Part shown: positions 1,846 through 62,022 of the stretch, piece by piece
Numbering within the stretch: the first letter of the stretch is position 1
How the letters are laid out: every line of letters starts with the position of its first letter
Origin: an archaeon
GTDB taxonomy: Archaea > Iainarchaeota > Iainarchaeia > Iainarchaeales > CSSED10-239
DNA: 64,000 bases
Reading direction: 5' to 3'
Assembly (NCBI GenBank): GCA_035400625.1
Contig: DAOMZT010000001.1
Location: 306,644 to 370,643 of the forward strand
The notes under the pieces: model-generated
What the model saw: only the letters and a program-made list of their open reading frames with translations
The model's database searches: none
What the model was told of the DNA's origin: nothing
Program-made: the position numbers and the translations under genes

Positions 1846-2376
1846 ATGGTTATGAAAATTGTGCGCAGATTATTTAAACCTAAAAAACTAAAACCTGTGG
1901 AATCTAAAGCATCAACATCTGCAAAACTAAAACAACAAAAACCAGAAAAAATTATTAAAAAATCTATAAAACAATTAAAAAAGCAAAAACCAAACTTTGG
2001 TAATTATAACAAGTTAGGAGGAGATTGGATATCTCAAGTAAATGGCAATTATCGTATAACTTACAGACAAAAAGGCAAAACTATTCGTTTATTTGATTTA
2101 AGATTATCTGAAAAAGGAACAATTAACCCAAAAGAATACAGAACCTTGCTTGAGAAAACCATTAAAAATTCAAGAGAATTAGGCTGTGAGATGGTGGTCA
2201 TAAAATCATGGGTTTTTGCAATGTATCCTGAATTAAAAAAATTTGGCTTTGTAGAAATAAAACCAGGTTCTGAAGCTAAATTTTCTGAGTTTGTTTCTAA
2301 AAGAAAAATTACTGAAGAAAAATTATTGAATAATCCACAAAGTAGTAGGTATCCAACCTATTATCTTAAAATTTAA
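1846..2376 (+). CDS. hypothetical protein with a K/P-rich N-terminal tail; C-terminal part is faintly GNAT-like
   Basis: 176-aa ORF with GGTGA upstream. The tail is RRLFKPKKLKPVESK..KQQKPEKIIKK. The C-terminal ELGCEMVVIKSWVFAMYPELKKFGFVEI resembles GNAT motif B, which is weak evidence. Confidence 0.5.
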   Translation: MVMKIVRRLFKPKKLKPVESKASTSAKLKQQKPEKIIKKSIKQLKKQKPNFGNYNKLGGDWISQVNGNYRITYRQKGKTIRLFDLRLSEKGTINPKEYRTLLEKTIKNSRELGCEMVVIKSWVFAMYPELKKFGFVEIKPGSEAKFSEFVSKRKITEEKLLNNPQSSRYPTYYLKI

Positions 2377-2385
2377 TGAACAATT

Positions 2386-3420
2386 ATGAATATTCTTTCT
2401 TTACAAAAGGATGGGAAACTTGTTTTTATTCCTCAGACTCTTGAGGATCTCTGGGTCATTAAATCAATTACTGATGTTGGAGATGTTATCTCTGGTTCTT
2501 CCTATAGAAGGATAAGAGGTAACGAGGCAGATAACGACTCAACAAGAAAGCCAGTCTTTGTTTCAATATCTATTGAGAAGTTTGATTTTTCTAAAGAACT
2601 TAATTCTTTAAGATTTACAGGAAAGATTGTTGAGAGCAAGCCTGAAGATCTAGCGCCTCTTGGTGAATACCACACTCTTGAAATCTCTCTTTCTAAATCT
2701 TATACTTTAAAAAAACCACAGTTCTTTTCTCATCAATTGGATTTGCTTCAAAACAACAATTCTGCAATTTCTTGTTCAATTCTTTTGATTGCTCTTGATG
2801 ATGAGAGAGCAAATCTTTTTGAGCTTACAAATATTGGAATAAAAGAGCTTGCAGTAATTGATTCAGGAAAGCCAGGCAAAAGATATTCTTCTGATTTTGA
2901 TTTTTCAAATTTCTTTTCTGAAATCTTTTCAATAGTTTCAAGGTATGATTGCCAGATTATTATTGCAGGCCCTGGTGCTACAAAATCTAAGCTTTCTGAA
3001 TTCATTAAACAAAAAAAAAGTTCTTTTAAGATCCTAGAGCTAGCAATTCAAAATACTAACAAGTCATCAATAAATGAGTTATTCTCTAAAAAAGAAGTTG
3101 CTAGATTTTTTAAAAACTCAATAATCTATAAAGAACAAAAGATTCTAGACGCCTTTCTTGAAAATTTAGGCAAGAACAATAACAAGGTAGCCTATGGCTT
3201 ACAAGAGGTGTCTATTGCCCTTGACCTAGGTGCTTGTGAAAACATAATGATTTCTGAAAGGCTTTGGAAGAGAGAGCTTGATAAAGTCCAAGAGCTTATT
3301 AAAAAAGCAGATATTGTTAAGACAAAAGTGCATATTGTTGATGAAGAACACGATGTTTCTAAAGCTTTAAAATCTTTTGGTGGAATAATCTCCACTTTAA
3401 GATATCCTTTGACTTTTTAA
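2386..3420 (+). CDS. pelA: Pelota (mRNA surveillance / ribosome rescue factor)
   Basis: The N-terminus LEDLWVIKSITDVGDVISGSSYRRI matches Pelota. An eRF1-like central and C-terminal architecture follows. Length is 344 aa. Confidence 0.9.
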   Translation: MNILSLQKDGKLVFIPQTLEDLWVIKSITDVGDVISGSSYRRIRGNEADNDSTRKPVFVSISIEKFDFSKELNSLRFTGKIVESKPEDLAPLGEYHTLEISLSKSYTLKKPQFFSHQLDLLQNNNSAISCSILLIALDDERANLFELTNIGIKELAVIDSGKPGKRYSSDFDFSNFFSEIFSIVSRYDCQIIIAGPGATKSKLSEFIKQKKSSFKILELAIQNTNKSSINELFSKKEVARFFKNSIIYKEQKILDAFLENLGKNNNKVAYGLQEVSIALDLGACENIMISERLWKRELDKVQELIKKADIVKTKVHIVDEEHDVSKALKSFGGIISTLRYPLTF

Positions 3421-3447
3421 GAAAATAAGAAAAAGACAATAACACAA

Positions 3448-3717
3448 TTAATGTGTTATGTTTTTGTTAACTGGTTTTTTTGTAGGGATAGCATTAGGAT
3501 CTACTTTAATCTTTAATGCTTCTTGTTCCTTCTTTTCTTTCTTTACTGTTCTAGTGATATAAGCAGACATTAAGTTTATTGTTAATTTAGACAATGGAAG
3601 GTTCATACTTTTTATAAATTCTTTATTTGCTTTAAAATCAACACCAAAGTCTTCTTTAAATTCGTTATATATTATCTTTGCTTTTGCTTTTATCTTATTT
3701 GACATCGCTTTACCCAT
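3448..3717 (-). CDS. rps17e: 30S ribosomal protein S17e
   Basis: MGK..KIKAKAKIIYNEF.EDFGVDFKANKEFI..PLSKLTINLMSAYITR follows the S17e consensus (MG..R.., DF..NK.., N.IAGYITR). Confidence 0.8.
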   Translation of the reverse strand: MGKAMSNKIKAKAKIIYNEFKEDFGVDFKANKEFIKSMNLPLSKLTINLMSAYITRTVKKEKKEQEALKIKVDPNAIPTKKPVNKNITH

Positions 3718-3730
3718 GATTGATTTCTCC

Positions 3731-3937: not shown

Positions 3938-4116
3938 ATTAATCTTTTATTTAATTATTATAGAACTAAAATAAGGTCATTTTGTCTATATAATATATAG
4001 TAGAGATAAGGTTTAAATATTATTCTTTTTAGATAGCAACACTGCTACTAATTAAGAAAATCACAAATCTCATGAATTTGGCAATTACAATCTCTCTTTG
4101 TGGTTGCAATTCTGAA

Positions 4117-5058
4117 TTATTTAAGTATGCGAGATATTTCTTTGAGAATCAATTTTTTATCTTGCTGAAAAAATTGCACTTTTTCTTTATGATTCATGTC
4201 AGCAAACATTTTAGTAACCTTCTGCATATTTTTAAGATTTTGCATAGGTTTAATAGATTCAAATATTATTGGAAAAAAGCGGCCCAAGTAATCATAGACA
4301 CTACGATAAACCCTTAATTCTTGGTTAAGACATTCTTCAAATATTTCTTGGGATAAATTAAGTCTTTTTTTCATTTGTACTGGTTTTGAACTAAACTCGT
4401 AAAGTGCATTTAACAAAAAATGATCTCCGCATTTAAACGGATTATCACTACCAAGGGACATGTAGTATCTATCATATAATTTCTGTACAAAATTAGTAAT
4501 TGTCCGCAAATCTTCAGGGGTTGGGTTTGCATTAATTATTTTAGGAATGACTTTCTTAAAATAATCACTTCTATAAGCAACATTAGGAAATCTACCCCAA
4601 TTGTCCTCTAGTTGTGATGCTTGCCTTGTAATTTCCGTCAAATATTTAATAAACAAGTTAGGATCGGCGCTGGTTTGTGCAGTTAGTTTGATTGCTGCAT
4701 CTGTGGCGATACCAAAGTTAATATTATCGCCTTTTAATAGTTTATCTCTTATTGACCTTTTTTTTGAAATAAGCTTAGCGCTATTAGTTATCCTTTTAAG
4801 TTCAGCTACTCTCTTTTCTATTTCTGCTTCTCTTATTACTTTATTAATTAATTTATTTTTCTCTGATGATATTTTTTTAATTTTTGATAAAGTCTTAGGG
4901 TCAATAGATTTATTTTTAATTTCTGCTTTTTTAGTTGATTCCTTCTTTACTTTTGATTTCTTTTCAGCAACAAATTTACGCTTACCCATTGTTATTGATT
5001 TTACTTTTTCTGCATTAGGAAAACTGCCTCTTCTTAAATTTCTTGTTGGCTTTAACAT
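4117..5058 (-). CDS. hypothetical protein, basic N-terminal tail (MLKPTRNLRR), Lys-rich linker, helical C-terminal domain; paralog of 40255..41190
   Basis: 313 aa. It shares KP.RNL at the N-terminus and FIK[YF]LTE at about residue 130 with the 311-aa ORF at 40255. Confidence 0.6.
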   Translation of the reverse strand: MLKPTRNLRRGSFPNAEKVKSITMGKRKFVAEKKSKVKKESTKKAEIKNKSIDPKTLSKIKKISSEKNKLINKVIREAEIEKRVAELKRITNSAKLISKKRSIRDKLLKGDNINFGIATDAAIKLTAQTSADPNLFIKYLTEITRQASQLEDNWGRFPNVAYRSDYFKKVIPKIINANPTPEDLRTITNFVQKLYDRYYMSLGSDNPFKCGDHFLLNALYEFSSKPVQMKKRLNLSQEIFEECLNQELRVYRSVYDYLGRFFPIIFESIKPMQNLKNMQKVTKMFADMNHKEKVQFFQQDKKLILKEISRILK

Positions 5059-5209: not shown

Positions 5210-5725
5210 TTAGATAACCAAAAGATATATCCAAAATCCTATTAATAATAGCCTTACAGCTATGACTTTATCAAATATCTTAAATAATGCCAAAATTATT
5301 GTAAGCAAAAGAAAGAACGGCAAAAATAGCACTTTTAATAGCAATAACCAGAAACTCTGTTTCTTATAATAGGTTCTTTTGATTGCCTCAAAAGAGTTGT
5401 TTGTGTCCTGGTCGCTTGGCACACAAAAGAACAATGCACTAATTCCTATCCAGACAAGCAAAAATATATAGAACGGCTCTTTTGTAAATTCTATGATGCT
5501 TGCACAAATAATTGCAATAAAGATATTAAACAAAAATGGAAATAATGAGATTATAATTATCTTATAGTCTTTTGAATCCTCATGCACAACATAGCCACCT
5601 GACTTATCAATAAACTTTATTTTTTTTATTTTTACTCCAAAGATCAAGCAAGCCAAAGCATGTGCTGTTTCGTGCAGAATAATTCCTGGAAAGAAAAGAA
5701 TATGCATTATTTCATTAAGTTCCAT
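5210..5725 (-). CDS. polytopic membrane protein with an HExxH (HETAH) motif, putative zincin-like membrane peptidase
   Basis: GIILHETAHALACLIFG lies in the first hydrophobic segment and is followed by several TM segments. The gene is last in a three-gene pilin cluster. Confidence 0.55.
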   Translation of the reverse strand: MELNEIMHILFFPGIILHETAHALACLIFGVKIKKIKFIDKSGGYVVHEDSKDYKIIIISLFPFLFNIFIAIICASIIEFTKEPFYIFLLVWIGISALFFCVPSDQDTNNSFEAIKRTYYKKQSFWLLLLKVLFLPFFLLLTIILALFKIFDKVIAVRLLLIGFWIYLLVI

Positions 5726-5739
5726 AAATAATAATTATT

Positions 5740-6120
5740 TCAATCTATATTTAAAATATTATTATGTCTTGTTAGGGTTATTTTTTGCTTTTCTGTGATT
5801 TCTGAAAAACCAATTTTAATAGAAAGAAAAGTTTTAATTTTACAAGTCTTTTGTTTGTTCTTAATTATTATCTTGTTATTGCTTTTTTCTATTTGCCAAG
5901 TGCTAAGCGCTCCTGGCTCAATCTCGCTCTTTCCTTCAGGCATAATCTCAAATAACTCAACCTCTGCCCTTAGCTCTTTACAAAAGCCTGTTAATCTGTA
6001 ATTGTCATTAACAATAATATTCTTGTTATAGAGGCTAATAACTCCAATAATGCTTGCACCAAGCACAGAGATAATCCCTGCAATCAACAAAATATACTCT
6101 AAAGTTACAAATCCTTTCAT
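5740..6120 (-). CDS. type IV pilin-like protein (class III signal peptide)
   Basis: N-terminus MKG|FVTLEYILLIAGIISVLG has G at -1, Glu at +5 and a hydrophobic helix. Confidence 0.65.
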   Translation of the reverse strand: MKGFVTLEYILLIAGIISVLGASIIGVISLYNKNIIVNDNYRLTGFCKELRAEVELFEIMPEGKSEIEPGALSTWQIEKSNNKIIIKNKQKTCKIKTFLSIKIGFSEITEKQKITLTRHNNILNID

Positions 6121-6333: not shown

Positions 6334-6408
6334 CCAGTCCTTCATATTTTTTGTGAATTTGAAAAAATAGTTATTTAAAACAGAATATACACAAATATAT
6401 TGGAACAT

Positions 6409-8631
6409 ATGTTAAAATCAATAATTTTAGAAAACTGGAAGACACACCAGAACACAAAAGTTTCTTTTGAGAAAGGCACAAACATAATTGTTGGAAAGAT
6501 TGGTGCTGGTAAGTCCAGTATTGTTGATGCTATATGTTATTCTCTTTTTGGCACATTTCCAAGCCTGCAAAACAGAAAGATAACTTTGGCTGAAACAATA
6601 ATGTTTAAGCCAGTAAAAAGAAAAGAAGCAAAGCTAAAGCTTGAGTTTGAGCATGATTCTAAAAACTACAGGGTTGAAAGAGAAATTTTTATTGGAAAAG
6701 TTAATACTGCTAAGCTTTTTTGCGAAGACAAGTTGCTTGTTGGCCCAAAGCAAACAGATGTTAATGAGAGGGTTTCAAACATTCTTGGAATTGACTATGA
6801 TCTTTTTGTAAAAATAGTATATAGCGAACAAAACGAAATTGATTATTTTCTAAAGATACCTCCAAGCAAAAGAAAAGAACAGTTTGATGCTCTTTTTGGT
6901 ATTAACAATTTAGAAAAGATAAAAATAAATTCTCGTTCTCTAAAGGCATATCTTGATGCAGAGTATGGTGCAATTCAAAAATTGATTGCTCAGCTAGAAA
7001 ACCAGCTTTTGTCTTTTAATATTTCTGATACAGAAAAGAATATTCAAGAAAACCAAGAAAAAATAAAGCACTTATTAGAATCTACAAACAATCTCAAGTC
7101 CAGAGAACAAGACCTGAAATCCAAAGTTGAAATTTTAAAAAAGCAAAAAACAGAATTTGATACTCTTAATCAAGAGATAAGAGCAATAGATTATAGAAAA
7201 CAAGAGCTCTCAAAAGAGCTTAGTGTTTTAGAAACACAAAAAACCAATTTCTTTTCGCTTACAAGAGATGTGCTTTTAGAGAAAAAGCAAGATTTACAAA
7301 AGCAGTTAAAAGAAAGCCAAGAGCTAGAAACAAAACTTAAATCAATTGCTTCCCAGAATTTTATCTTGACTAACCAGCTTGAGCAGATCAATAGTTCTCT
7401 TGATGTTTCTTTAGATTTATCCAAAATAAATCTAGAAAAAGAAAAGATTTCGCAAGAAATCAATAGTGCTATCCAAAAACAAGCAATTCTTAATTCCCAA
7501 AAACAAGAGAATCTAAAAGCAGTAGCTGAGCTTGAAAAGGGCTTTTCTAAATGTCCTGTATGTGATTCGCAATTGTCAGAAATTCAGATTTTTGAAAAAC
7601 TAAAATCAAAAAAAGAAACAAATGCAAAAATAACAAATGATATTTTGGCTCTTGATAAATCTTTGTTATCATTAAGAGAAGAATTTAGTTTGCTACAGAA
7701 AAAAGAAAGAAAAGCAAGTGAGCAACATTTGTTAGTTGATAGAAAGCAAAGAATAATTGAAGAAAAGAAAAAGCTTGATGAGCAAGAAAAGGCTCTTGGC
7801 AAGCCAAAAGACATTTCTGCTCTTGAAAAAGAGATAGATGCTATAATTCAAGCAATAGACTACCAAACTAAAAAAGAACAATTGTCTGAAATTATAAAAA
7901 AACAAGAATTTTTCTCTAAGAAGCTTTTAAGCATGAATTATGATGATAATAATTATCTCTCGTTATTAGCAGATCTGAGAAACCAAGAAGAGAAACTAAA
8001 TAACAATAATGTTCAAATATCTTTGATACAAGGAATAATAAAAAATCTAGAAAACACAAAAGCACAATATGAAAAATTATCTTTGAATCTTAAAGAAAAT
8101 CAAAACACAATAACAAAACTAGAAACAAAACAAAAAGATATGGTTTTCTTTTCTCAGGCTCTTGAAAATAGCCAAGAACATCTTCGTAAAGTGCTTGTTG
8201 ATAATATTAACAAGACATTAGAAGTGATTTGGCCAAAGGTCTATCCTTATGGCGATTATCTTTCAGCAAGGCTAAAAGCAGAAAATGATTATGTCTTGGA
8301 AGTTTTGACCTTAGGAAAAGAATGGATAAGAGTTGAAGGGCTTTTATCAGGTGGTGAAAGAACCTGTGCAGCACTAAGCATCAGGGTTGCTATTGCTTTG
8401 TCTTTGACAAAAAATCTTGGCTTGTTAATACTTGATGAGCCAACCCACAATATGGATTCAAAAACCATTTCTATGTTATCCTCAATTCTTGATAAAGAGC
8501 TTCCTGAGCTAGTAGAACAAATATTTATAATAACTCATGACCAAAAGTTATTAGAAACTACAAACTCAAGCAAGTACATAATTGAAAGAGATAAAGAAAA
8601 CGACGGAGTTTCATTTATAAAAGAGGAGTGA
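6409..8631 (+). CDS. rad50: DNA double-strand break repair ATPase Rad50
   Basis: Walker A GKIGAGKSS, a long coiled coil with a CPVC zinc hook, the signature LSGGERTCAALSIRVA, and Walker B LLILDEPTHNMD. ATG at 6409 is preferred over TTG at 6400. Confidence 0.9.
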   Translation: MLKSIILENWKTHQNTKVSFEKGTNIIVGKIGAGKSSIVDAICYSLFGTFPSLQNRKITLAETIMFKPVKRKEAKLKLEFEHDSKNYRVEREIFIGKVNTAKLFCEDKLLVGPKQTDVNERVSNILGIDYDLFVKIVYSEQNEIDYFLKIPPSKRKEQFDALFGINNLEKIKINSRSLKAYLDAEYGAIQKLIAQLENQLLSFNISDTEKNIQENQEKIKHLLESTNNLKSREQDLKSKVEILKKQKTEFDTLNQEIRAIDYRKQELSKELSVLETQKTNFFSLTRDVLLEKKQDLQKQLKESQELETKLKSIASQNFILTNQLEQINSSLDVSLDLSKINLEKEKISQEINSAIQKQAILNSQKQENLKAVAELEKGFSKCPVCDSQLSEIQIFEKLKSKKETNAKITNDILALDKSLLSLREEFSLLQKKERKASEQHLLVDRKQRIIEEKKKLDEQEKALGKPKDISALEKEIDAIIQAIDYQTKKEQLSEIIKKQEFFSKKLLSMNYDDNNYLSLLADLRNQEEKLNNNNVQISLIQGIIKNLENTKAQYEKLSLNLKENQNTITKLETKQKDMVFFSQALENSQEHLRKVLVDNINKTLEVIWPKVYPYGDYLSARLKAENDYVLEVLTLGKEWIRVEGLLSGGERTCAALSIRVAIALSLTKNLGLLILDEPTHNMDSKTISMLSSILDKELPELVEQIFIITHDQKLLETTNSSKYIIERDKENDGVSFIKEE
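8616..8627. repeat. 12-bp direct repeat copy 1 (tataaaagagga) inside the rad50 3' end
   Basis: An exact copy recurs at 9362-9373, inside the 3' end of the next ORF. Confidence 0.5.
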
Positions 8632-8632
8632 T

Positions 8633-9385
8633 ATGCCACCACTGAAAAGACCATCATTGAAACTGTCAGTAAAAAGACAAAGGTTTAAGCCTCAGATTAA
8701 ATTACAAAAATCAATATTAAAAAGGCCAACTTTTAAAGAACAGATTGAATCAATTCCTGGAAGAACCAAACATGAAATATTTGGTTATAAAAAGCCAAGA
8801 AGAAAATTTATTGATAAAACAATTAAAATAAATGAAAAAGAAGTAAGATATGATGAAAAACGCAAATATCTTACTGGGGAACATACAGAAATACACACTC
8901 ACCTTTGTAATCCAAAACTAGCAACAGAATCAACACCAGGCCCCTTTGATTTTCTAGGTTGGGTTGATGATTATATAACAACAAGTGGCAAAAAAAATAG
9001 AGCTGTTGTTTCATCAATTCATTTTGAGAATGGAAAAGAACTTGGAAGAGTCCATGTTGTTTTTAAAAAAGATGCACTAAATAAGCAATTAAGAAGTCAC
9101 ATTTATAATTGTTATTTAGAATTTGCAAAAAAGAATAGAAGACAAATAACACCTTTCGAAAAATTCAATGCTGATTTATTCTTTTATCAAGAAAATGGAA
9201 AAGTAAGCAGATATCTTAATGATATGATAGAAAAAGATTTTGATTTTGGAAAAAGATTAAAAGTTTCTAAAACAAAGGATTTAAGAGAGATTTTCACAGA
9301 TATAGAAAGGAAATGGGGAATAAAGATAAGAGCATATTCTCATCCAGGCCATGCCTTTGACTATAAAAGAGGAACATTTTATTGA
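8633..9385 (+). CDS. hypothetical protein: basic N-terminal tail (MPPLKRPSLK) plus a degenerate JAB/MPN-like H-x-H core; paralog of 31177..31968
   Basis: 250 aa, starting 1 nt after the rad50 stop. It shares with 31177..31968 the MPP.K/R tail, an HTH..P motif, a VxxxxxxNGKxxGxV segment, and a C-terminal GI(K/Q)(I/L)...G(H/Y)xFD. Confidence 0.6.
   Translation: MPPLKRPSLKLSVKRQRFKPQIKLQKSILKRPTFKEQIESIPGRTKHEIFGYKKPRRKFIDKTIKINEKEVRYDEKRKYLTGEHTEIHTHLCNPKLATESTPGPFDFLGWVDDYITTSGKKNRAVVSSIHFENGKELGRVHVVFKKDALNKQLRSHIYNCYLEFAKKNRRQITPFEKFNADLFFYQENGKVSRYLNDMIEKDFDFGKRLKVSKTKDLREIFTDIERKWGIKIRAYSHPGHAFDYKRGTFY
9362..9373. repeat. 12-bp direct repeat copy 2 (tataaaagagga)
   Basis: Exact match to 8616-8627. 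Confidence 0.5.
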
Positions 9386-27701: not shown

Positions 27702-28154
27702 ATGTTTACTAAAAAAGGCCAACTCTCAATAGAGGTTCTAATAATTATTATTTTTTTGATTACCTTTATCTATGTTTATAATAATTTAGCAGAACAAGCA
27801 GTTTATTCTTTAGAGATAAACAAGATAAAAGAGCAAGAGCTAACAATTGCTCTTTCTGTTAATGAATTTTTAGAGGCGCAAAAGAACATTTTGGCAGATA
27901 CTAACATAGTAGATTATAATGCAACCTATCGTTTACCAACAATTACAATTGCTAGCAAGAAAATAACCTCTTGTTTTGTAGATATAAACCTAGATACTCA
28001 AATGTTGATTGTTCAAACTGACTATTCAAATATCCACACAGATATGGATGTTAATCTTCCAAAAGATGATTTTAATATTTCTGGAATAATAAGTTGTGGG
28101 GAGACAATCATATGCAATAAGCCTTCAACAAAAATAGAGTGTAAGCAAATATGA
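27702..28154 (+). CDS. type IV pilin-like protein (class III signal peptide)
   Basis: MFTKKG|QLSIEVLIIIIFLITFIYV, with Glu at +5. Confidence 0.65.
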   Translation: MFTKKGQLSIEVLIIIIFLITFIYVYNNLAEQAVYSLEINKIKEQELTIALSVNEFLEAQKNILADTNIVDYNATYRLPTITIASKKITSCFVDINLDTQMLIVQTDYSNIHTDMDVNLPKDDFNISGIISCGETIICNKPSTKIECKQI

Positions 28155-31170: not shown

Positions 31171-31189
31171 GTTTAATCATTTTCTTATA
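31168..31189. repeat. junction repeat copy X (minus strand: TATAAGAAAATGATTAAACATG)
   Basis: Covers the last codons and stop of ORF 31177..31968, the spacer, and the ATG of abce1. It matches 31966-31991 at 21/22 positions plus one 4-nt indel. Confidence 0.8.
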
Positions 31190-31968
31190 AATTCTATAGT
31201 GTTAGGATCAAATCTGTAACCGTTATATTTGTTTGCTACAAATTTAAGTTGAATCCCTAATAACTCATACATCTCTATTCTGCTTTTATTGCTATTAAAT
31301 AAATGTTTATATTTTAAAAAATTTAATATTTCAATTGGATTGAACAAGCCATTTTCTAAACAAAATACCATAAGTTCAACATTATATTTTGTGTGATTAA
31401 GAATTGGTTTTTCTTTTTCTAAATATTTTCTACCTTCTGCTTTACTTAATAATTCATTTATAAAAACAATTTTTGAAATACTTGCTTGAAAAGTAAATTG
31501 TTGTTCATAAGTCAAATTTTGTTGTTCAAAGATTTTTGATAACTGATTAAAAGTTTTACCTGCCTTTTTTTGAAAATTTTTAAAAGATGTTTCATATTTA
31601 GGGCGTACATGATATTGCACTTGCCCACTAATCTTTTTGCCTTCATTTATATAAATTACATTTGAGTTTTTTGACAAAACCAGATCTGTAATACTTGGCA
31701 TCAAAGAAATAGGGTTTGTTTTTGGATGTGTGTGTGCAAAATAGATTGTGCCACCTTTACTTTCTGTTTTCTTTATATAATTTATAGTTTTTTCTATATC
31801 AAGATATACAGATTTATTTCCTTTATTTTGAGTAACATTTTTCATTTGGCATCTGCTTCTTTTTATAAAAGCATGTTCTAGATGAGGGTTTTCACTAATT
31901 GCTTTTTCTACAACCTTAATTGGTCTTATTCTGGCCCTAGGTCGCACAGTTCTAGGTTTTGGTGGCAT
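31177..31968 (-). CDS. hypothetical protein: basic N-terminal tail (MPPKPRTVRPRARIRP) plus a JAB/MPN+ (JAMM)-like motif
   Basis: FAHTHPKTNPISLMPSITD gives H-x-H ... S-x-x-D with a longer spacer than canonical JAMM. 263 aa. Paralog of 8633..9385. It is packed between rfcL (2-nt gap) and abce1 (6-nt gap). Confidence 0.6.
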   Translation of the reverse strand: MPPKPRTVRPRARIRPIKVVEKAISENPHLEHAFIKRSRCQMKNVTQNKGNKSVYLDIEKTINYIKKTESKGGTIYFAHTHPKTNPISLMPSITDLVLSKNSNVIYINEGKKISGQVQYHVRPKYETSFKNFQKKAGKTFNQLSKIFEQQNLTYEQQFTFQASISKIVFINELLSKAEGRKYLEKEKPILNHTKYNVELMVFCLENGLFNPIEILNFLKYKHLFNSNKSRIEMYELLGIQLKFVANKYNGYRFDPNTIEFIRK

Positions 31969-34772: not shown

Positions 34773-35054
34773 ATGATTATAATGGGAATAATTAAGCCAA
34801 AACCAAAAAGGCCAACAGTAAAAACACAAAATGCGAAATTTACCGCTAGTAATAAAGGAAGACTATTTGCATCTAGCATGGTGGAGAAAACACCAGATGG
34901 GCGCATAAGATTAAGAAAATCCTCACAAAAGGTAACAAAACCAAATTACACAAAATCTGAATTAATTAACATATTAAAATGGGTGGATAATCCAAGAGGT
35001 TATTTTTTAGAAGAAGGAATGACTTTAAAAGATTTAAAAAAAAATAAAAAATAA
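34773..35054 (+). CDS. small basic hypothetical protein (tail GIIKPKPKRPTVK)
   Basis: 93-aa ORF, K-rich at both ends. No recognisable family. Confidence 0.45.
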   Translation: MIIMGIIKPKPKRPTVKTQNAKFTASNKGRLFASSMVEKTPDGRIRLRKSSQKVTKPNYTKSELINILKWVDNPRGYFLEEGMTLKDLKKNKK

Positions 35055-35085
35055 AAACAAAGAGAGTGTAGTAAAAATAAAGGAT

Positions 35086-35634
35086 GTGCGTGATCATTAT
35101 CCTTTAAATGAGTTGGCGAGTGTTTATGGCAAACAAGAAGTTATCAATGCTTATGGAAATATGACAGAAATAATCAAAAAAAGAACACCTAAAGAGATCG
35201 CTGGTGTTTTTGGCGCAAAACCATTGTTAGATTATTTAGTTAAAAACAAAGGCGGATTAAAAGGATTTAGAAAAAGTATGGAAATTAACAAAGTAGGTTC
35301 AAGAGGCATTGCACCAGGTTCATTAGAATCTGTTATAAGATTTGCAGGTGGCTCCCATACAGAAGTTGCTCGTTATTTTAATGGCTATAAAGGCTTAGTT
35401 AAAGTATTTGGGTTTAATGAAGCCTTAAGGAATTATGGGCATAATGTAATTAAAGCAGAAGGAGGAATAAAAGCAGTTATAAAAAAATATCAGCTTAAAG
35501 ATATATTTTCTGGATTAAGTCTTAACCAAAAAAACGCATTATATAGAGAATATGGCCCTGAATTATCAAAGGCATACACAGCATCAGAATTATCAAGAAT
35601 ATTTCCTGAGCGGATTAGAAGATATAGTCAATAA
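35086..35634 (+). CDS. hypothetical repeat protein with about 8-9 h-x-x-[YF]-G motifs (HhH-like?)
   Basis: GTG start. Motifs are LASVYG, VINAYG, IAGVFGAKPLLDYL, VIRFAGG, VARYFNG, LVKVFG, ALRNYG and LYREYG. The gene lies just 5' of pcn. Confidence 0.45.
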   Translation: MRDHYPLNELASVYGKQEVINAYGNMTEIIKKRTPKEIAGVFGAKPLLDYLVKNKGGLKGFRKSMEINKVGSRGIAPGSLESVIRFAGGSHTEVARYFNGYKGLVKVFGFNEALRNYGHNVIKAEGGIKAVIKKYQLKDIFSGLSLNQKNALYREYGPELSKAYTASELSRIFPERIRRYSQ

Positions 35635-35712: not shown

Positions 35713-36429
35713 ATGATATCTACAAAAAACACAAATATGCTTACTAAAAGCTTGGAAACTATTACTCCGTTAATTCAGGAAACAAATGTTAGGTTTAAAG
35801 ATGAAGGAATCTATATCAAAGCAATAGATAAGACCCAGATTCTTCTAGTTGACTTTTTTATGTCAAAAAAGGCATTTGATACCTATGCTGTAGAACCAAG
35901 CCTTATAGGTCTTAATATCCAAGAACTAAAAAACATGCTTTCTCGTTCATTTGCTGAAGACAAGCTACAACTAAACCTTAAAGAACAAGGGCTAGATATT
36001 CATTTGCTTGGCAAAATAGAAAGAAAATTCTATATGTCTTTTCTTGATCTTTCAGAACAAGACATTAATCTTCCAGAGATAAAATATGAGGCAGAATTTA
36101 ATATCACAGCAGGACTTCTAAAAGAAATAATAACAGACATTAATCTTGTGGCATCAACAATTCTTTTTAAGATAAATGATGGAAAGCTAATTATTGAGGC
36201 AAAAGGAGAGAAAGGAAACATAAAGACCACGCTTCCAGAGATAAAATTAAAAACTAAGAAAAATTTCTCTGCTAAGTTTTCTCTATCTTTTTTAAAAAAC
36301 ATAGTTAAGTCTATGGACAATGACAAAGTGCTATTAATCAAACTTGCAGAAGATGTTCCAATCTATATCGAGTATACTCTAAGTAAAGATTGTATAATAA
36401 AGTTCTATTTAAGTTCTATGCTAATATGA
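35713..36429 (+). CDS. pcn: DNA polymerase sliding clamp PCNA
   Basis: 238 aa. ETNVRFKDEGIYIKAIDKTQILLVDFFMSKKAFDTY and a two-domain repeat pattern typical of PCNA. Confidence 0.88.
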   Translation: MISTKNTNMLTKSLETITPLIQETNVRFKDEGIYIKAIDKTQILLVDFFMSKKAFDTYAVEPSLIGLNIQELKNMLSRSFAEDKLQLNLKEQGLDIHLLGKIERKFYMSFLDLSEQDINLPEIKYEAEFNITAGLLKEIITDINLVASTILFKINDGKLIIEAKGEKGNIKTTLPEIKLKTKKNFSAKFSLSFLKNIVKSMDNDKVLLIKLAEDVPIYIEYTLSKDCIIKFYLSSMLI

Positions 36430-36438: not shown

Positions 36439-37215
36439 ATGGCCATCTTAAAACCAAAATTATCTAGAAGAAAAATAAAACCAGCAAAACCAATAATAAT
36501 CAACAAATCACAAGTTTCTAATTTTAGTAAAACACTTTTAAGCAAACCAAAAGAACCATTATTTGAAGGCAAGTATTCCAAAAGCCTAACCAAAAAGATG
36601 CCTAGAAAGAAAATAAAACCAGTAAAACCTGTAATATATAATAAGCCATATCTTTCAGATTACGATACAAGACTTATAAAATTTAAACATGCATTTGAAA
36701 ATAAATATGGTTTTAATATCTTTAAAACAAAAGGTGAAAAACTCCATGTTTTCTTGCCAATGACAGGCATGTCTCCACAAGGTTATTTGTTAAAGGCTTT
36801 TTTTGAACAAACCCTTCCAAAAGCAAGAGTTACTTTTTTAGTTACTCCAAAAAGTACATTAGTTGAGGCAGATCCTAAATTTAGAAGAAAAGCTATAAAT
36901 AATTTAGAGAACCATTTAAGAAGGTCTCTTAATATTCATGATAAATATTTTGTTTGCTTTGATTATATTCAGAAAGGCAGTGTTCAAATAAATATTATGC
37001 AAATCTTGAATAAAATTTATAATAAAGAAGTAAACTATTTAGCAGTAAAATCACCAAGAGACAGGGGAATACCAACCCACATAAAAGAGCCAGATGGTAG
37101 CTCTATAAGGCCACTCCAATCTAAAGCAAAATTTAAAAATATAATACAAGAGCATTATAATGCAGGTATTGAGTTATCCAGAATGAAGAATTTTATTTCA
37201 AAGCTACTAGAATAA
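36439..37215 (+). CDS. hypothetical protein with a duplicated basic N-terminal tail; possible divergent member of the 8633/31177 family
   Basis: 258 aa, starting 9 nt after the pcn stop. The tail motif R(R/K)KIKP(A/V)KP(I/V)I.NK occurs twice. LHVFLPMTGMSPQGY and the C-terminal AGIEL loosely echo its putative paralogs. Confidence 0.55.
   Translation: MAILKPKLSRRKIKPAKPIIINKSQVSNFSKTLLSKPKEPLFEGKYSKSLTKKMPRKKIKPVKPVIYNKPYLSDYDTRLIKFKHAFENKYGFNIFKTKGEKLHVFLPMTGMSPQGYLLKAFFEQTLPKARVTFLVTPKSTLVEADPKFRRKAINNLENHLRRSLNIHDKYFVCFDYIQKGSVQINIMQILNKIYNKEVNYLAVKSPRDRGIPTHIKEPDGSSIRPLQSKAKFKNIIQEHYNAGIELSRMKNFISKLLE
36464..36491. repeat. in-frame internal DNA repeat, copy 1 (basic tail module)
   Basis: ctagaagaaaaataaaaccagcaaaacc versus ctagaaagaaaataaaaccagtaaaacc at 36602-36629. 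Identity is 25/28, offset 138 nt. Confidence 0.8.
36602..36629. repeat. in-frame internal DNA repeat, copy 2 (basic tail module)
   Basis: See 36464-36491. Confidence 0.8.
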
Positions 37216-37217: not shown

Positions 37218-39146
37218 TTATGCTAACTTAATAGCATAGGTCTTATTTATTCTTTGTATTAATGTTTCTTTTTTACTTGTGTCTTTGAATGCATGAAGTA
37301 TTACTTCCCAGATTGTTTTAACAGGAATTATCTCTAGGCTTTTTGCAACCTCTGGTGAAAGAACCAAGTCTTCTTTATTTGATTCTGGGATTATAACTTT
37401 TTTTATCTTTGCATTTTTTGCAGCATTGACTTTTGCAGTAACCCCTCCAATTGGTAAAACATCTCCCCTGATTGATAGAGAACCAGTCATTGCAATCTCT
37501 TGCTTAATAGGTATATCTTCAAGCACAGAAATTATTGCTGTAGCAATAGATATAGAAGCAGAATCTCCTTCAACATTATAGGTTTGTAAAAACTGAACAT
37601 GTATGTCGTAATTTGCAATATCTTTGCCTGTTAATTTTTTAATAATTGCAGAAACATTATCTACTGATTCTTTAGCAATGTTACCTAGTTGTCCGGTTGC
37701 TATGATTTTGCCTTCATTTTTAGAAGATGCTGGTGTTATCTCACATTCTATTGGTAAAAGAAGCCCAGCATCACTTTCGTTCATTACAGCAAGGCCATTA
37801 ACTCTTCCAATAGAATATCCTGTTGTCTTAAAGATATCATAATCCTTCTTAATGACCATCATCTTGCTAACCATTTGTTCTTCAAGAGTTCTAGCTGTGT
37901 CTTTGGCCTTAAGCACTATTTCTCTTGTCACAAGCTTTTTATTTTCTTCAAGTGCAATGTCTCCTGAAGCTCTTATAAGCCCTCCAAGTTCTCTTAGTTT
38001 TAATGTTAAGCTATTTTTTCTTGTTGCTCTTTTTCTTGCTTCAAAGATAATCTCATCAACTGCTTCTTTAGAGAAGTGTGGTATCTTTTTGTCTTTTGCT
38101 ATTTCTTGAGCAACAAATTGCACAATCTTGTTTCTGTTCTCTGCAGTGTCTGGCATATCAATATTCATGTGGCACTCATAGCCAGAACCTCTTATTCTTG
38201 ATCTAATAGCAGGATGTACTTTTTCTAAATCAATATAGTTACCAGCAGCTACAAGTATAAAATCACAAGGAGCAGGGGTTGTTCTTACCATTGCTCCACT
38301 TGACATTTCTGATTGTCCAGTAATACTGAATTTTTTCTCTTGCAATATTGTTAGTAAGTCCTGTTGTGATTTTGGTGAAAGTGCGGAAATCTCATCAATA
38401 AATAAAACTCCCCCATTTGCCTTGTGTATCATTCCAGGAACAACTCTCATGTGTGCTGGTGTTCCAAGACCCCCTGATTGTAAGGGATCGTGCAAAACAT
38501 CTCCAAGAAGAGCCCCTGCTTTAGCACCTGTTGCATCAATAAATGGCACTTCTTTTTTATTGCGATTATCAATAATGATTTTTGGGATAAGTGCTCTTTC
38601 TTTTTGCATCATCTGCATGCTTAAAGAAGTTGAAACCATTAAAAATCCAGACAAAAGAAGCATGGCTGCAAACACAACATCTGGAACCCAACCAAGTCTC
38701 CAAAACACAATTGAAATGATTAACCAGATTGTTGGTAGGAAAAAGCCAACAATTCTTCCAGCCCCCATTTGTTTTGCTGCTTCTATTTTTGTTGCTTCGA
38801 CAATTTTCTTTCCTTCTCCTGCAGGAACTTCAGTAATTTTAGGTGTGTGAGAATCTTCTAGATTTGGATATACTAAGATATCTGTTAGTTTGTTGGTTGG
38901 AAGCATCTCAGCAAGAGCAGAAGCAATCATGGACTTACCTGTTCCTGGCGCACCAATAAGCATAATGTGCCTTTTCTGTCCAGCAACTTTTTTAATAAGA
39001 TTGATTGAAGCGTCTTGTCCAATCACTTGATCAATCATTTTTGTTGGAACTTCAATCTCGCTTGTGTCATTAAAAATAAGTTCTTTAACATCGCTTTTTG
39101 CTTTTATTTTTGTTTTAGTTTTTTTATCTTTGGTTTTTGTTGACAT
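37218..39146 (-). CDS. lonB: archaeal membrane-bound Lon protease (LonB)
   Basis: AAA+ Walker [10 protein letters not shown], a TM hairpin inserted in the ATPase domain ([15 protein letters not shown]...LLLSGFLMV), and a Ser-Lys protease domain ([14 protein letters not shown] ... GGVTAKV). Confidence 0.92.
37219..37238. terminator. 7-bp stem hairpin between convergent genes (tatgcta-N6-tagcata)
   Basis: A perfect inverted repeat lies between the stop of 36439..37215 and the stop of lonB (which it overlaps). It could act as a bidirectional terminator. Confidence 0.3.
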
Positions 39147-40254: not shown

Positions 40255-41190
40255 ATGGCAAAACCATTAAGAAATTTAAACCTTTTAAGGAAAATAAACC
40301 CTTTAAGAAAAATTAAAAAACCAGGGCAACCAAAGATAGAAAAAACAACTATCAAGCCAAGCACAAAAAAACAAGCAAAACCAGTTGTACCTAAAGAACC
40401 AAAATCTAGTAAATTAAGTAATTTAAAAAAGAAAAAGCTCGCAAAAATTGCAGATAAAGAAAGATTTACTCCAAAGATTAGTTTATCAGAAGCTGAAAGA
40501 TCAAGAACTATGAGAAGTATAACTCTAGATAAGATTGAAGCTTTAAGAAACAGAATAAAAACAATTGATAATGCTTATAAGCATTTAGAAAATCAAAGAT
40601 ATAATCCAGATAATGTTAATCCAGAAAAAGGGGTGTTTATTAAATTTTTAACTGAAGCAAAAACTCCTGAACAATGGGCAAAAAGAAATTATCAAGAAGG
40701 GCACATAGTTTCATTTAAAGAATATAAAGATCTCTTAAGAAGAAACAGATTAGCACACAAAACTGCAGTAAATGAATTAAATAGAGCTGAATTTTTGTAC
40801 TCTCTTAAAAGACAAGAAAGATGGTTATCTGGCAGAAATGTTGGTGATTTTAAAGAAGCTCATACAAAAGCAATAAATGTTTTAGCACAGAGATATGAAC
40901 GAGGGCAAATTAGTAGTGAATATCTAAAAAAGTTTATGTCTGTTTTAGATTCTTCAGTTAGGGGAACTCTTGCTCAACATAGAACTTTAGCACGCACAAA
41001 AGGTACAGAATATTTTGATCTTCATTCAAGGGTTACTGGAAAAGCTTTATTATCTTTCATGAAAGAAGCAAATTTAAAGAACTTTGATAGGGCTGTAAAG
41101 AACTTTGAATTGAATATGAGTGCAATAGCAGGCACTATAGACAAGCCGAACAGATCAGTTGAGCTTGAATGGATGTATAAAAGAATATAG
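40255..41190 (+). CDS. hypothetical protein, basic K/P-rich N-terminal tail (MAKPLRNLNLLRK..KKPGQPK..KPVVPKEPK); paralog of 4117..5058
   Basis: 311 aa. It shares KP.RNL and FIKFLTE with the 313-aa ORF at 4117..5058. Confidence 0.6.
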   Translation: MAKPLRNLNLLRKINPLRKIKKPGQPKIEKTTIKPSTKKQAKPVVPKEPKSSKLSNLKKKKLAKIADKERFTPKISLSEAERSRTMRSITLDKIEALRNRIKTIDNAYKHLENQRYNPDNVNPEKGVFIKFLTEAKTPEQWAKRNYQEGHIVSFKEYKDLLRRNRLAHKTAVNELNRAEFLYSLKRQERWLSGRNVGDFKEAHTKAINVLAQRYERGQISSEYLKKFMSVLDSSVRGTLAQHRTLARTKGTEYFDLHSRVTGKALLSFMKEANLKNFDRAVKNFELNMSAIAGTIDKPNRSVELEWMYKRI

Positions 41191-59517: not shown

Positions 59518-59529
59518 GCAAATAAGATT

Positions 59530-59562: not shown

Positions 59563-59916
59563 TTAAATGCAATTTTTAATCTTTAAAAAGGTTATTTCTG
59601 GCTTATATGTTTTTTTTTGTTTTCCTGTCCTTTGTAATGGTGTTCCTTTTATTTGAACTTTTCCTCTTGCTGCCATGATGTTATACTCTAAAATAAGATC
59701 TCTAAGATGTTTTTTTGCTTTGCTCATTTCTTTTGTAGTGATTTGATATTTGTTTTCTAATTTTTCTAGTTTTTTTACAAGTTCAAATTGTCTTTCAATG
59801 TTAAGTATTCTATCTATATTAGTTTGTTTTCTTATTAGCCTTTTGGTTACATCTTTTGTCTGTTTTCTTGCAATTCCGCTTTTACCAATTCTTCTTTTTA
59901 CATTATATTTAGGCAT
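59563..59916 (-). CDS. small basic hypothetical protein (MPKYNVKRRIGKSG...)
   Basis: 117 aa, K/R-rich with a coiled-coil-like centre. No recognisable family. Confidence 0.5.
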   Translation of the reverse strand: MPKYNVKRRIGKSGIARKQTKDVTKRLIRKQTNIDRILNIERQFELVKKLEKLENKYQITTKEMSKAKKHLRDLILEYNIMAARGKVQIKGTPLQRTGKQKKTYKPEITFLKIKNCI

Positions 59917-60019
59917 ATATTTCTTGTTAGTATGTTCTTTTTAAATAGTTTTCTATATCATTAATATATAAGACATATATTTATAATATATTTCTAATTA
60001 TTAAAAATGTGAATAAAAT

Positions 60020-60415
60020 ATGGTTGAATGGAAAAGAGTATCAAGAAGAAAAGCAACAGGCGGAGTAAATAATGCTGTTAATGCTAAAACAAAATCCTTA
60101 AGTGATAAGGGCGGTAAATTCTCAAAGACAACAATTGCAAAAGCAGATAAGAGATTCAAGACCAGAGCTGTTGGTGGCAATAAAAAAACAAAGATTTCTC
60201 ATGCTCAGTATGTCTTGGTTTCTGAAGGTAACAAGACAATAAAAGCAAAAGTTATAGATGTTACAGAGAATCCAGCAAACAAGCACTTTGTAAGACAAAA
60301 GATAATCACAAAAGGTGCAATCCTTAAAGTAGATGTAGATGGCAAAGATGCAAAAGTAAAAGTAACATCAAGACCTGGTCAATCAGGCCAAGTAACTGGT
60401 GTTTTTGTTAAATGA
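60020..60415 (+). CDS. rps8e: 30S ribosomal protein S8e
   Basis: SRRKATGG, RAVGGNKK, ENPANKHFVRQKIITKGA and VTSRPGQSGQV motifs. Confidence 0.9.
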   Translation: MVEWKRVSRRKATGGVNNAVNAKTKSLSDKGGKFSKTTIAKADKRFKTRAVGGNKKTKISHAQYVLVSEGNKTIKAKVIDVTENPANKHFVRQKIITKGAILKVDVDGKDAKVKVTSRPGQSGQVTGVFVK

Positions 60416-60966
60416 AATCCAATTCTTTTGTTAAGAGATTTAAAAAAGATTTAAAAAATAAGAATGAGCACAAAAAAGCTCTTCTTTTCTTGTTCTTGTT
60501 TATTTTTGTATTTTCGCTTTCTTATTTGTTGTTTGCCAAGTCTCCAATTTCGGGATATATAAATTATTTTTTTGGTTTTTCATCTAGTGTAGTATTGTCT
60601 GTTTTTGGCGTAAGCAATAATTTTGTTTTTGATTCATTGACAAAGACCTCCACAATTGTTGTGTCCAATCTTAAAGAACCAATAGTGATTTCTTTTCTTT
60701 GTTCAGGCATCCTAGAATTTTGCCTTTTAATTTCTGCTATTCTTTCTTCAGTAGGTGTTTCTCTAAATAAAAGGATAGTTGGCGCTCTTCTTGCAATTCC
60801 AATCATATTTTTCTTTAATCTCACAAGGATAGTTGTTACTTCTCTAATAATAATAAATAGCAATCTTTCTTTTGCAAATTTTGTACATGGTTTCCTTTTT
60901 AGGCTTTTCCTTATAATTATTGTTATTGGAACCTATTATGTTTGGTTTAGAACTAACACTGAGTGA
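60412..60966 (+). CDS. exosortase/archaeosortase-family membrane protein (short form)
   Basis: Polytopic protein with a conserved-looking Cys (SFLCSGILEF), Arg (FFNLTRIVV) and His (FANFVHGFLF) in the order expected for the sortase-like triad. ATGA overlap with rps8e. Confidence 0.55.
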   Translation: MKSNSFVKRFKKDLKNKNEHKKALLFLFLFIFVFSLSYLLFAKSPISGYINYFFGFSSSVVLSVFGVSNNFVFDSLTKTSTIVVSNLKEPIVISFLCSGILEFCLLISAILSSVGVSLNKRIVGALLAIPIIFFFNLTRIVVTSLIIINSNLSFANFVHGFLFRLFLIIIVIGTYYVWFRTNTE

Positions 60967-60972
60967 AGAGAA

Positions 60973-61587
60973 ATGCCAAAATCAAGAAGAATAAAAACAC
61001 ACACAAAAGGAAATCCAATAACTCCTTTGCCTGAAAAGAACCGCTATATCTTTACAGACCTAATCCCAAAATTAAAAGAATTACAAAGGTCAAAAAGCAA
61101 GATTGAAACCAAAGAAAAATATTTGAAATTAAATTCTGCAAAATCAGAAATTAAAGGTCATGCAAAAGAGATCTATAACAATCTAATGGCAAGGAAAACA
61201 TCTGATGGGAAATGTGTGCTTGATGGTCTAACTCCAAAAGTTAAGAAGCAAGTTTTTGAGTTTATAGAGTCTAAACTTTCTGCAACATATTTTGAAGGCA
61301 TAACAAATTATAAAAAAATGATTATTCAACAAGAAGCAAGTGGATTAATTTCTGCGATTAAAAATCATAAAGAAAAATCAATGGTAAAAAAAGAAATAAT
61401 TTCAAAAATCAAATACTATGAGGATCTAAAGAAAAAAGACAGAGACAAAATAAACGAAATAATAAACTATAACTTATCATTAATAACCAACAAACCTTAC
61501 TTGACTGCCAAACAATCAGCAGAACTTAATAGAACAATTTCTAAATATCTAGCAGAGATGGGTTTTCCAAGAATAATTTTTAAGTGA
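60973..61587 (+). CDS. hypothetical protein with a basic N-terminal tail (MPKSRRIKTHTKGNP)
   Basis: 204 aa, helical and K-rich. No recognisable family. Confidence 0.5.
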   Translation: MPKSRRIKTHTKGNPITPLPEKNRYIFTDLIPKLKELQRSKSKIETKEKYLKLNSAKSEIKGHAKEIYNNLMARKTSDGKCVLDGLTPKVKKQVFEFIESKLSATYFEGITNYKKMIIQQEASGLISAIKNHKEKSMVKKEIISKIKYYEDLKKKDRDKINEIINYNLSLITNKPYLTAKQSAELNRTISKYLAEMGFPRIIFK

Positions 61588-61593
61588 TACAAT

Positions 61594-62022
61594 ATGGGTA
61601 GCAGAAAAAATAATAGAAAAACAGTTATTAGAAAGAAGAAGCCACAAGAACAAATTACAGAAAAGCTCGAAAAGAAAAAATTAGATGTTCAAAAAATTCC
61701 TTTGCTTAAACAAAAAGATGTTTCTTTTATAACGGATTATATTCAGCAAGGCATAAACAGAAATTCTCGTGGGCTAAATATAGGCAAGATTGAAAAAAAA
61801 CACAAAATGAAAATATATTTGTTGTTTGAAGAATTAAGAACAGACCCCAGAAATCAAAGAGCTCTTGCAAGAACTAACAAGTTAGATTTAGAAATTGCAG
61901 ATGTGCTTATTGACTACATTAAAGCAAGGAACAAACCAATTAATGAAATATTAAATGAATTATCTAAAAAAGAAATTGACATAATAAATAAACTGATTTT
62001 TAAAAAATTGTTTTTTGACTAA
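61594..62022 (+). CDS. hypothetical protein with a basic N-terminal tail (MGSRKNNRKTVIRKKKP)
   Basis: 142 aa. No recognisable family. Confidence 0.5.
   Translation: MGSRKNNRKTVIRKKKPQEQITEKLEKKKLDVQKIPLLKQKDVSFITDYIQQGINRNSRGLNIGKIEKKHKMKIYLLFEELRTDPRNQRALARTNKLDLEIADVLIDYIKARNKPINEILNELSKKEIDIINKLIFKKLFFD

Follow-up and report, generated by a model that had tools for sequence, protein, structure and literature searches.

Ten proteins encoded in a 64,000-nucleotide stretch of contig DAOMZT010000001.1, from an archaeon of the Iainarchaeota, begin with tails rich in lysine, arginine and proline (K/R/P). These tails are a real, heritable and N-terminal-specific class of disordered polycationic arms, ~15–70 residues long, and their carriers are very basic, soluble, lineage-specific and often dispensable proteins. 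What the arms do is a matter of more tentative reading, developed below. The window denotes the whole stretch analysed, and each gene is named by its first coordinate. The ten genes are as follows.

1846..2376 (+): basic protein of 176 or 174 residues, isoelectric point (pI) 10.2; tail at about residues 1–50 (DNA about 1846–1995), MVMKIVRRLFKPKKLKP...KQQKP...KKQKP.
4117..5058 (−): basic helical protein of 313 residues, pI 10.0; tail MLKPTRNLRRGSFPNAEK..., encoded at the 5058 end.
8633..9385 (+): His-rich protein of 250 residues; tail, as read from the sequence, at residues 1–41 (8633–8755), MPPLKRPSLK / SVKRQRFKPQIK / LKRPTFKEQIES.
31177..31968 (−): protein of 263 residues with an invariant, JAMM-like HTH-x10-S-x2-D; tail MPPKPRTVRPRARIRPIK (31915–31968).
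34773..35634 (+): one gene of 283 residues, split into 34773–35054 and 35086–35634, with an A9 run at 35036–35044; tail (M)GIIKPKPKRPTVK, from 34782.
36439..37215 (+): protein of 258 residues; residues ~1–70 (36439–36650) form a disordered basic arm with two basic-core copies, residues 70–258 a confidently modelled alpha/beta domain.
40255..41190 (+): basic helical protein of 311 residues, downstream of RNase Z, pI 10.3; tail at about residues 1–62 (40255–40440), MAKPLRNLNLLRKINPLRKIKKPGQPK...
59563..59916 (−): very basic protein of 117 residues; tail MPKYNVKRRIGKSGIARKQTK, with one proline only, a weaker member of the set.
60973..61587 (+): protein of 204 residues; tail MPKSRRIKTHTKGNPITPLPEKNR.
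61594..62022 (+): protein of 142 residues; tail MGSRKNNRKTVIRKKKP, with one proline only, likewise a weaker member.

All ten N-termini read as the original prediction had transcribed them. We scored each tail as the number of K/R/P among residues 2–21, with a threshold of at least 8, in a set of 75 genes from the window. Of the 75 N-termini, 13 reach the threshold: those of the ten flagged genes and three more, which belong to LonB (K-rich, without proline), a protein with an NYN domain and a membrane protein with a basic N-terminus ahead of a transmembrane helix. By comparison, 1.9% of the 20-residue windows taken from the interior of these proteins reach it, as do 2/347 (0.6%) decoy open reading frames (ORFs) from non-coding frames of the same DNA and a single C-terminus in 75. 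Within-protein shuffling (n=5000) gave a mean of 3.0 such genes and a maximum of 10. Under a strict criterion (at least two prolines plus at least five K/R) 8 N-termini remain, against 3/347 decoys and a shuffle mean of 2.0; with at most one D/E allowed in addition, it is 8 N-termini against 0/75 C-termini. Averaged over all N-termini, lysine is enriched 1.27-fold, and proline (1.05-fold) and arginine (1.16-fold) are not enriched; the tails are therefore confined to a discrete subset of genes and do not follow a genome-wide trend. Measured against composition-matched expectation in these window genes, then, the tails are non-random and specific to N-termini, and the idea that random ORFs of this composition would carry them as often fails.

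Nor do the tails arise from misplaced start codons. Public-assembly gene calls agree on lengths of 311, 258, 263, 250, 313, 117, 204 and 142 residues for eight of the genes. The remaining two, 1846 (174 or 176 residues in public assemblies) and 34773 (90 residues), are called shorter from the next in-frame ATG, 2–3 codons downstream, which is probably their true start; the tail is retained in both. A GGAGG/GGTGA-type site lies upstream of most of the ten genes, including GGTGA just upstream of 1846 and a strong AAGGAGG site of its own for 4117. That second ATG in 1846 and 34773 is what speaks for an artefact of wrong starts or non-coding ORFs. Against it stand the survival of the tails from the alternative starts, the Shine–Dalgarno-like sites, the concurring independent gene calls, the rarity of such tails among decoys and their retention as protein sequence in orthologues, and we regard this explanation as next to negligible.

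The tails are also inherited. At least 8 K/R/P are kept in 12 of 15 homologues of the flagged genes from related loci, compared with 1 of 77 homologues of non-flagged soluble proteins. Over the first 25 residues the net charge of the flagged proteins is +6 to +9, where the median for the window background is +2, and all 37 homologues found in databases are net positive (+2 to +10) over the same length. The tails contain few acidic residues. The basic character extends beyond them: the pI of all ten proteins is 9.9–10.6, it is still 9.65–10.2 after removal of the first 30 residues, and with the 75 proteins ranked by pI all ten stand in the top 16, beside ribosomal protein S8e. No hydrophobic segment was found over the whole length of any of the ten (maximum Kyte–Doolittle value over 15 residues, ≤1.49).

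None of the ten proteins has a meaningful match in Pfam, PHROGs or NCBIfam. The downstream domains differ, as originally proposed: all-against-all BLAST among the ten gave nothing below E = 0.6, which argues against paralogy. A distant relationship between the 31177 and 8633 families was considered and is not claimed, the profile–profile probability being only 7% for an alignment around the residues HTH. The description of the ten as ORFans holds in so far as they are lineage-restricted; they are not singletons, since metagenomic database searches for three families returned 7 (31177), 23 (36439) and 12 (8633) homologues. With the alignments of these three families, profile searches of PDB sequences gave no match, and scans of IMG/VR gave no viral relatives. 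By-eye impressions of 36439 as phosphoribosyltransferase-like and of 1846 as GNAT-like were left unconfirmed.

Family cores and the growth of the arms

The original prediction took the tails as a shared feature, resembling SPKK or AT-hook minor-groove binders or else serving as a targeting or export signal. A Gibbs search on the ten tails returned scores of 81.0, 95.7 and 112.7 for widths of 6, 8 and 10, no better than the 78.8, 97.2 and 114.7 obtained from composition-preserving shuffles (standard deviation about 2.4; 2.2 at width 8), so no shared module or signal motif is apparent. A pattern chosen post hoc, R..[IFLV][KRN]P, is enriched, with 8 occurrences against 1.6 expected, and accounts for the tails of no more than four of the ten; a likeness around KP.RNLRRG that links 4117 and 40255 with one paralogue of the 36439 family could arise by chance in sequences of such composition. 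Neither does membership of the AT-hook or SPKK classes hold up, as RGRP, GRP and [ST]P[KR][KR] are absent from every tail: among the 75 proteins RGRP does not occur, GRP occurs once (residue 381 of the Hel308-like helicase) and [ST]P[KR][KR] once (residue 60 of the non-flagged 49836). A classical export signal is equally unsupported, with no hydrophobic region after the tails and no twin-arginine motif in them. A loose twin-arginine pattern matches the gene set three times: beyond the tails in 8633 (residue 56) and 36439 (residue 149), and within the first 40 residues only in S8e, which is not flagged. The class III signal (a short basic start leading to [KR]-G/A and a hydrophobic helix) was not found in the flagged proteins and is present in their neighbours 27702, 28151 and 28904. 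The tails are convergent in composition and are no portable module.

What is conserved lies within families. Each of four families has a core of its own: KRPTFK (8633), R[KR]RPI (31177), PRKK.K.P (36439) and GNPITPLPEKN (60973). Four tails contain in-frame DNA repeats, with spacings of 138, 48, 27, 51 and 48 nucleotides. Read from these sequences, an arm consists of a short family core, which adjoins the conserved part of the protein, and outside it an extension whose length varies and increases as A/C-rich codons are duplicated in tandem and in frame.

One such case is 36439, which lies directly downstream of PCNA. The repeat reported for it is present (25/28 nucleotides, 36464/36602, in frame, spacing 138 nucleotides or 46 codons) and stretches to 78 nucleotides at 71% identity. 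It had been taken as a sign that the tail behaves as a module; it proves to be a tandem in-frame copy, within the gene, of the family's own core, and the repeats of 8633 are of the same kind. The family motif, G+YS..LTK+.PR..K+.K.P, corresponds to copy 2 of the window duplication. Copy 1 is also found in an 83%-identical fragment and is absent from a 72%-identical orthologue, and is a recent addition. Members of the family occur in Iainarchaeota metagenome-assembled genomes (MAGs), including Candidatus Forterrea, and two of them with R-richer, K-poorer bodies (P0029 and P0030) retain a basic N-terminus using arginine. AlphaFold models were made for 36439 (from a 20-sequence alignment) and for 31177. 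In the former, residues 1–70 have a predicted local distance difference test (pLDDT) score of 51–69 and a single bridge residue, and the core (residues 70–258) mostly scores 80–97; a Foldseek comparison of this core with PDB folds gave no match at E ≤ 1e-3. The family is tandemly duplicated in L010, one of the related or same-species loci used for comparison (L001–L037, with L009 from a sister species). The genome itself has two PCNA genes, one in the window (35713–36429) and a second ~4 kb upstream of the window start (L019 5758–6507).

The 8633 family (12 homologues, 56–100% identity) illustrates how an extension can arise. In seven of 11 aligned orthologues the N-terminus is the short ancestral MPxKRPTFKxQIES and nothing more; extensions are found in a few others and in the window protein, where the extra stretch is ~27 residues long. 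This extension consists of in-frame repeats of the protein's own core (8670/8718, spacing 48; 8640/8667, spacing 27). Conserved residues include HTH, H130, H141 and SHPGH. The gene starts 1 nucleotide past the Rad50 stop codon, an arrangement kept in three genomes (window 6400–9385; L020 461–3458; L021 7776–10672). The annotation of the three regions contains neither Mre11 (Metallophos) nor NurA, and HerA lies 3.5 kb downstream. A candidate role for the 8633 family, given this position, is that of a substitute partner of Rad50.

The 31177 family (7 homologues, 48–84% identity) is encoded, in the window, between RFC and ABCE1. Its six full-length homologues (48–62%) keep the core [AP]R[KRI]RPI, which adjoins a strongly conserved segment and is preceded by an extension of 3 to >40 residues; one homologue has a tail 31 residues longer. 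The tail is R-rich, with 7–8 arginines to one lysine in the closest full-length orthologues. The HTH-x10-S-x2-D pattern is invariant in 8 sequences of the family, and there is a weak NCBIfam match to desampylase (15.8 bits against a cutoff of 130). The defining site of JAMM/MPN+ proteins is E...HxHx(7)Sx(2)D on an MPN fold, compared with HTH-x10-S-x2-D here, and a JAMM-like domain in 31177 is a possibility suggested by this pattern. The AlphaFold model is poor, with pLDDT below 50 for most of residues 1–56, and its best Foldseek match in PDB had E = 2.5, the model being poor around the JAMM-like motif itself.

Among the remaining genes, 1846 contains an in-frame 20-nucleotide repeat (1925/1973, spacing 48 nucleotides). 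The gene at 34773 had been listed as one of the ORFans; its tail stands, and the ORF is the 5′ fragment of the 283-residue gene. The gene is intact in L001–L004, which have A8, and split in the window, which has A9; L005 and L006 show the same split. The single-A difference, seen in the DNA alignment, could be a true polymorphism caused by slippage, perhaps a form of phase variation, or an error that recurs in assemblies. In L009 the orthologue of 40255 shares 72% identity with it from residue 54 onward, and the orthologue's first ~55 residues are unalignable yet basic (MAIIKRAAKRIAPK). Homologues of 60973 in L023, L025 and L027, at only 30–33% identity, keep MPKPK(I)..GNP[IV].PLPEKN+.IF, and the 70%-identical orthologue of 61594 in L023 keeps MGSRKNNRKTVVRKKK. 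At the position of 59563, relatives have other no-Pfam ORFs with basic N-termini, for example MAKPPIPRRVIKSRQ in L023 and MPRKIITRK in L027.

At least six of the ten proteins are missing from close relatives. Both 31177 and 34773/35086 are absent in L009, where housekeeping proteins are 80–90% identical and RFC and ABCE1 abut. L021 lacks 1846, between iPGM and Pelota. Absence of 60973 was noted in L029, L030, L032, L034, L036 and L037, and of 61594 in L025, L027, L029 and more distant relatives, with flanking genes conserved in several cases for both. The gene 4117 alone occupies a 1,181-base-pair stretch between 7-base-pair direct repeats TTAGATA (4029–4035 and 5210–5216); the stretch is exactly missing in the same-species strain L007 and is missing too in L021. 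It looks like a single-gene cassette gained or lost via microhomology or target-site duplication.

Relatives have other no-Pfam genes in variable positions or insertions, several with similar tails: MVKPSKKPMIPRARKLKR in L020, MAKPPIPRRVIKSRQ in L023, MARVKVPKGRIPK in L027 and MPPRKPNNKSKKP in L030. Annotated soluble proteins with such N-termini in the related loci are limited to LonB (without proline), uL3, eL42 and eL31. In ~18 kb of sequence adjoining the window in the same species, no other soluble protein with a tail was found. LonB (37218–39146, −) is the only Pfam-annotated window protein to match the flagged K/R/P counts: near 39146 it has a lineage-specific, K/T-rich N-terminal extension with no proline and a count of 9, and the extension of its L009 orthologue differs in sequence. 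Two paralogous no-Pfam genes (287 and 263 residues) are inserted between PAC2 and HerA in L021 (14134–15801); they show a G-x-G-x-x-G...AIKK pattern, kinase-like by eye, and moderately basic N-termini with proline.

The genomic background is that of a DPANN archaeon with a generally basic proteome and a small AT-rich genome. The window has a G+C content of ~31% throughout and is densely coded, 79 ORFs spanning 94% of the sequence; the proteome contains ~12% lysine and ~4% arginine, and about half of the window proteins have a pI of ~9 or higher. Its large proteins are those of archaeal information processing, namely FttA (termination factor), LonB, ABCE1, HerA and Rad50, together with a Hel308-type helicase, the archaeal CCA-adding enzyme and the PheRS beta subunit. 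Precomputed Pfam assignments add PCNA, RFC, PriS, PriL, GINS, aIF2-alpha, Pelota and aRF1, and the ribosomal proteins L1, L10, P1 and S8e. The sole RNA gene detected is one tRNA-Arg. The window sequence is also present in many metagenome assemblies and in MAG GCA_029563035.1. An 89-residue ORF at 3448–3717 (−) has no Pfam match on record for the window species; its positional counterpart in L021 gives a weak Ribosomal_S17e match, and the ORF is probably ribosomal protein eS17 and no ORFan.

Candidate roles of the arms

We tentatively read the arms as electrostatic tethers of lineage-specific domains to DNA or RNA, with a likelihood somewhat short of even. As a polycation, an arm would bind polyanionic nucleic acid, be it DNA, rRNA or other RNA. 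Its prolines would keep it extended and non-helical, like ribosomal protein extensions and H1-like tails, and tethering would concentrate the lineage-specific domains on the nucleoid, on replication or repair complexes or on ribosomes. We favour this reading because the whole proteins are as basic as ribosomal proteins, because the annotated proteins with the same type of N-terminus (uL3, eL42 and eL31) bind rRNA, because proline interspersed with lysine and arginine favours an extended, non-helical conformation, as in H1-like and AT-hook segments, and because 8633 adjoins Rad50, 36439 lies beside PCNA and 31177 beside RFC. Archaeal ribosomal proteins, including those of Diapherotrites, are reported with basic motifs of the nuclear localization signal (NLS) type (bioRxiv 10.1101/671966).

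Several observations weigh against a tether. Sequence, profile and fold searches identified no folded domain as a nucleic-acid-binding fold, and neither the AT-hook nor the SPKK consensus is present in the tails. Of the ten flagged proteins only four have the classical NLS consensus K[KR]x[KR] within residues 1–45, as do 10 of the 65 others. Long extensions are evolutionarily dispensable, the seven short orthologues of 8633 having a 9-residue core only, and no alignment is possible between the N-terminal region of 40255 and that of a 72%-identical orthologue. The argument from gene neighbourhood is weak, the window being rich in information-processing genes.

Much of the same evidence bears on an explanation that needs no function. 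The tails could be largely a non-adaptive by-product of slippage in A-rich tracts, in an AT-rich reduced genome with a basic proteome, which we think unlikely; put in terms of selection, and just as doubtful, K-rich low-complexity sequence would grow and be tolerated at the unconstrained N-termini of young, fast-evolving and dispensable genes. Such an origin would account for the wide variation in tail length among orthologues, the in-frame repeats in four tails, the want of anything shared beyond composition, the high pI of about half the window proteins and the accessory nature of the carriers. The unalignable N-terminus of 40255 would follow as well, and the homopolymer frameshift of 34773 is consistent with active slippage. 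C-termini and loops should, however, be affected too, yet only 1 of 75 C-termini is (0 of 75 under the strict criterion). Moreover, the residues that set the tails apart are proline, encoded by CCN codons, and arginine, which outnumbers lysine 7–8 to 1 in the 31177 tail; short cores are conserved down to 30–50% identity; and the tail is kept in most homologues (12/15). The R-rich tail of 31177 in a K-rich proteome and the use of arginine in P0029 and P0030 make AT bias alone an insufficient explanation.

We consider it quite improbable that the arms are an unconventional, composition-based signal targeting proteins to the cell surface, a contact site or a host cell. Like many targeting signals, the tails are N-terminal, disordered, positive, acid-poor, length-variable and free of consensus, and in several related genomes their carriers are accessory, fast-evolving and placed in variable slots between conserved genes. 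Some domains resemble effector-type enzymes, such as the JAMM-like HxH..S..D of 31177 and the pair in L021 that is kinase-like by eye, and relatives such as Forterrea are predicted symbionts (PMC5905446). Hydrophobic regions, twin-arginine motifs, class III signals and known sorting signals are all absent from the tails, and no secretion machinery is linked to the ten genes. Whole proteins as basic as ribosomal proteins are not what a signal requires, and the conserved 1-nucleotide spacing between Rad50 and 8633 points to an intracellular role in DNA repair. We know of no archaeal precedent for a targeting signal of this kind, which also counts against it. Taken further, the arms might be an undescribed sorting signal by which JAMM-like, kinase-like and other folds of obscure affinity are sent to the symbiont–host interface or into the host, the carriers forming an accessory effector repertoire with rapid turnover and a recognisable leader; this we regard as a long shot.

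Very unlikely is an effect at the level of translation or mRNA, in which A-rich, T-poor early codons would reduce mRNA structure and raise the expression of new genes, the amino acids being secondary. In the first 60 nucleotides of the flagged genes A indeed makes up 50% and T 19%, compared with 41.5% and 30% for the other genes, and lysine is mildly enriched (1.27-fold) over all N-termini. But housekeeping genes do without tails, proline-rich starts such as MPP are unfavourable for translation, and threonine, glutamine, asparagine and histidine, whose codons are also A/C-rich, are not enriched. Tails of 40–70 residues, furthermore, reach far past the initiation region, and the cores are conserved as peptides.

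Known systems and significance

A close parallel to the arms, if they are tethers, lies in the extensions and NLS-type motifs of ribosomal proteins (uL3, uL15, uL18 and uS12; Melnikov et al., bioRxiv 10.1101/671966), which are likewise short, disordered, K/R-rich ends, often with proline, on very basic proteins. The uL3 of a relative (MPRKYKPRAGSMAFYPRVRAK) scores 10 on the K/R/P measure used for the tails. Unlike ribosomal proteins, the carriers have no Pfam match and are mostly accessory, and their tails are longer and variable in length. AT-hooks (core PRGRP) and SPKK motifs are also polycationic, proline-punctuated and non-helical, and by analogy the arms could lie along a groove of the DNA, here in a genome rich in AT; some orthologues of 31177 contain PRKRP, which is like PRGRP except for a lysine where the glycine would be. 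In contrast to both, the tails have no GRP, no [ST]P[KR][KR] and no regular repeat unit. H1-like tails rich in lysine, proline and alanine occur, for example, on some bacterial HU proteins.

AT-rich reduced genomes have low-complexity expansions and high-pI proteomes. The K-rich, basic proteome and the lengthening of tails by in-frame duplication agree with this picture, whereas the tails differ from low-complexity expansions in being strictly N-terminal, rich in proline and arginine too, conserved within families and confined to a discrete class of proteins. With Sec, Tat and class III signal peptides the tails share N-terminal position and a positive start; they have neither a hydrophobic core nor a twin-arginine consensus, and the true class III signals on the neighbours at 27702–29395 look quite different.

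Class III (prepilin-type) starts, [KR]KGQ followed by a hydrophobic helix, were seen on clusters of small proteins in the window (27702–29395 and 5740–6120) and elsewhere (L019 3–1488 and 3015–4476; L016 13775–18170). Past the window end lie very large acidic proteins (544–884 residues, pI about 4.5) with no firm Pfam match, some of which share the prepilin-type start. These clusters and acidic proteins are probably pilus or surface structures.

A literature search on DPANN archaea with lysine-rich or disordered N-termini found nothing specific. In the literature searched, the systematic association of arms with accessory ORFans in variable DPANN slots appears undescribed, as does arm growth by duplication of a family-specific core.

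Many proteins encoded by DPANN genomes have no known function, and criteria for grouping them are scarce. A disordered arm with at least 8 K/R/P in 20 residues, combined with a pI of about 10, is a marker that can be read from sequence alone. In the window and related loci it picks out proteins that belong together as a class, being lineage-specific, for the most part dispensable and encoded in variable slots between housekeeping genes, and the evolution of their arms, from a short conserved core through in-frame tandem duplications, is documented here. Were the arms a sorting signal, they would offer the first sequence-based way to find DPANN effectors. If they are tethers, as we tentatively prefer, the arms would identify lineage-specific factors associated with the nucleoid, replication, repair or the ribosome, such as 8633, encoded directly after Rad50.

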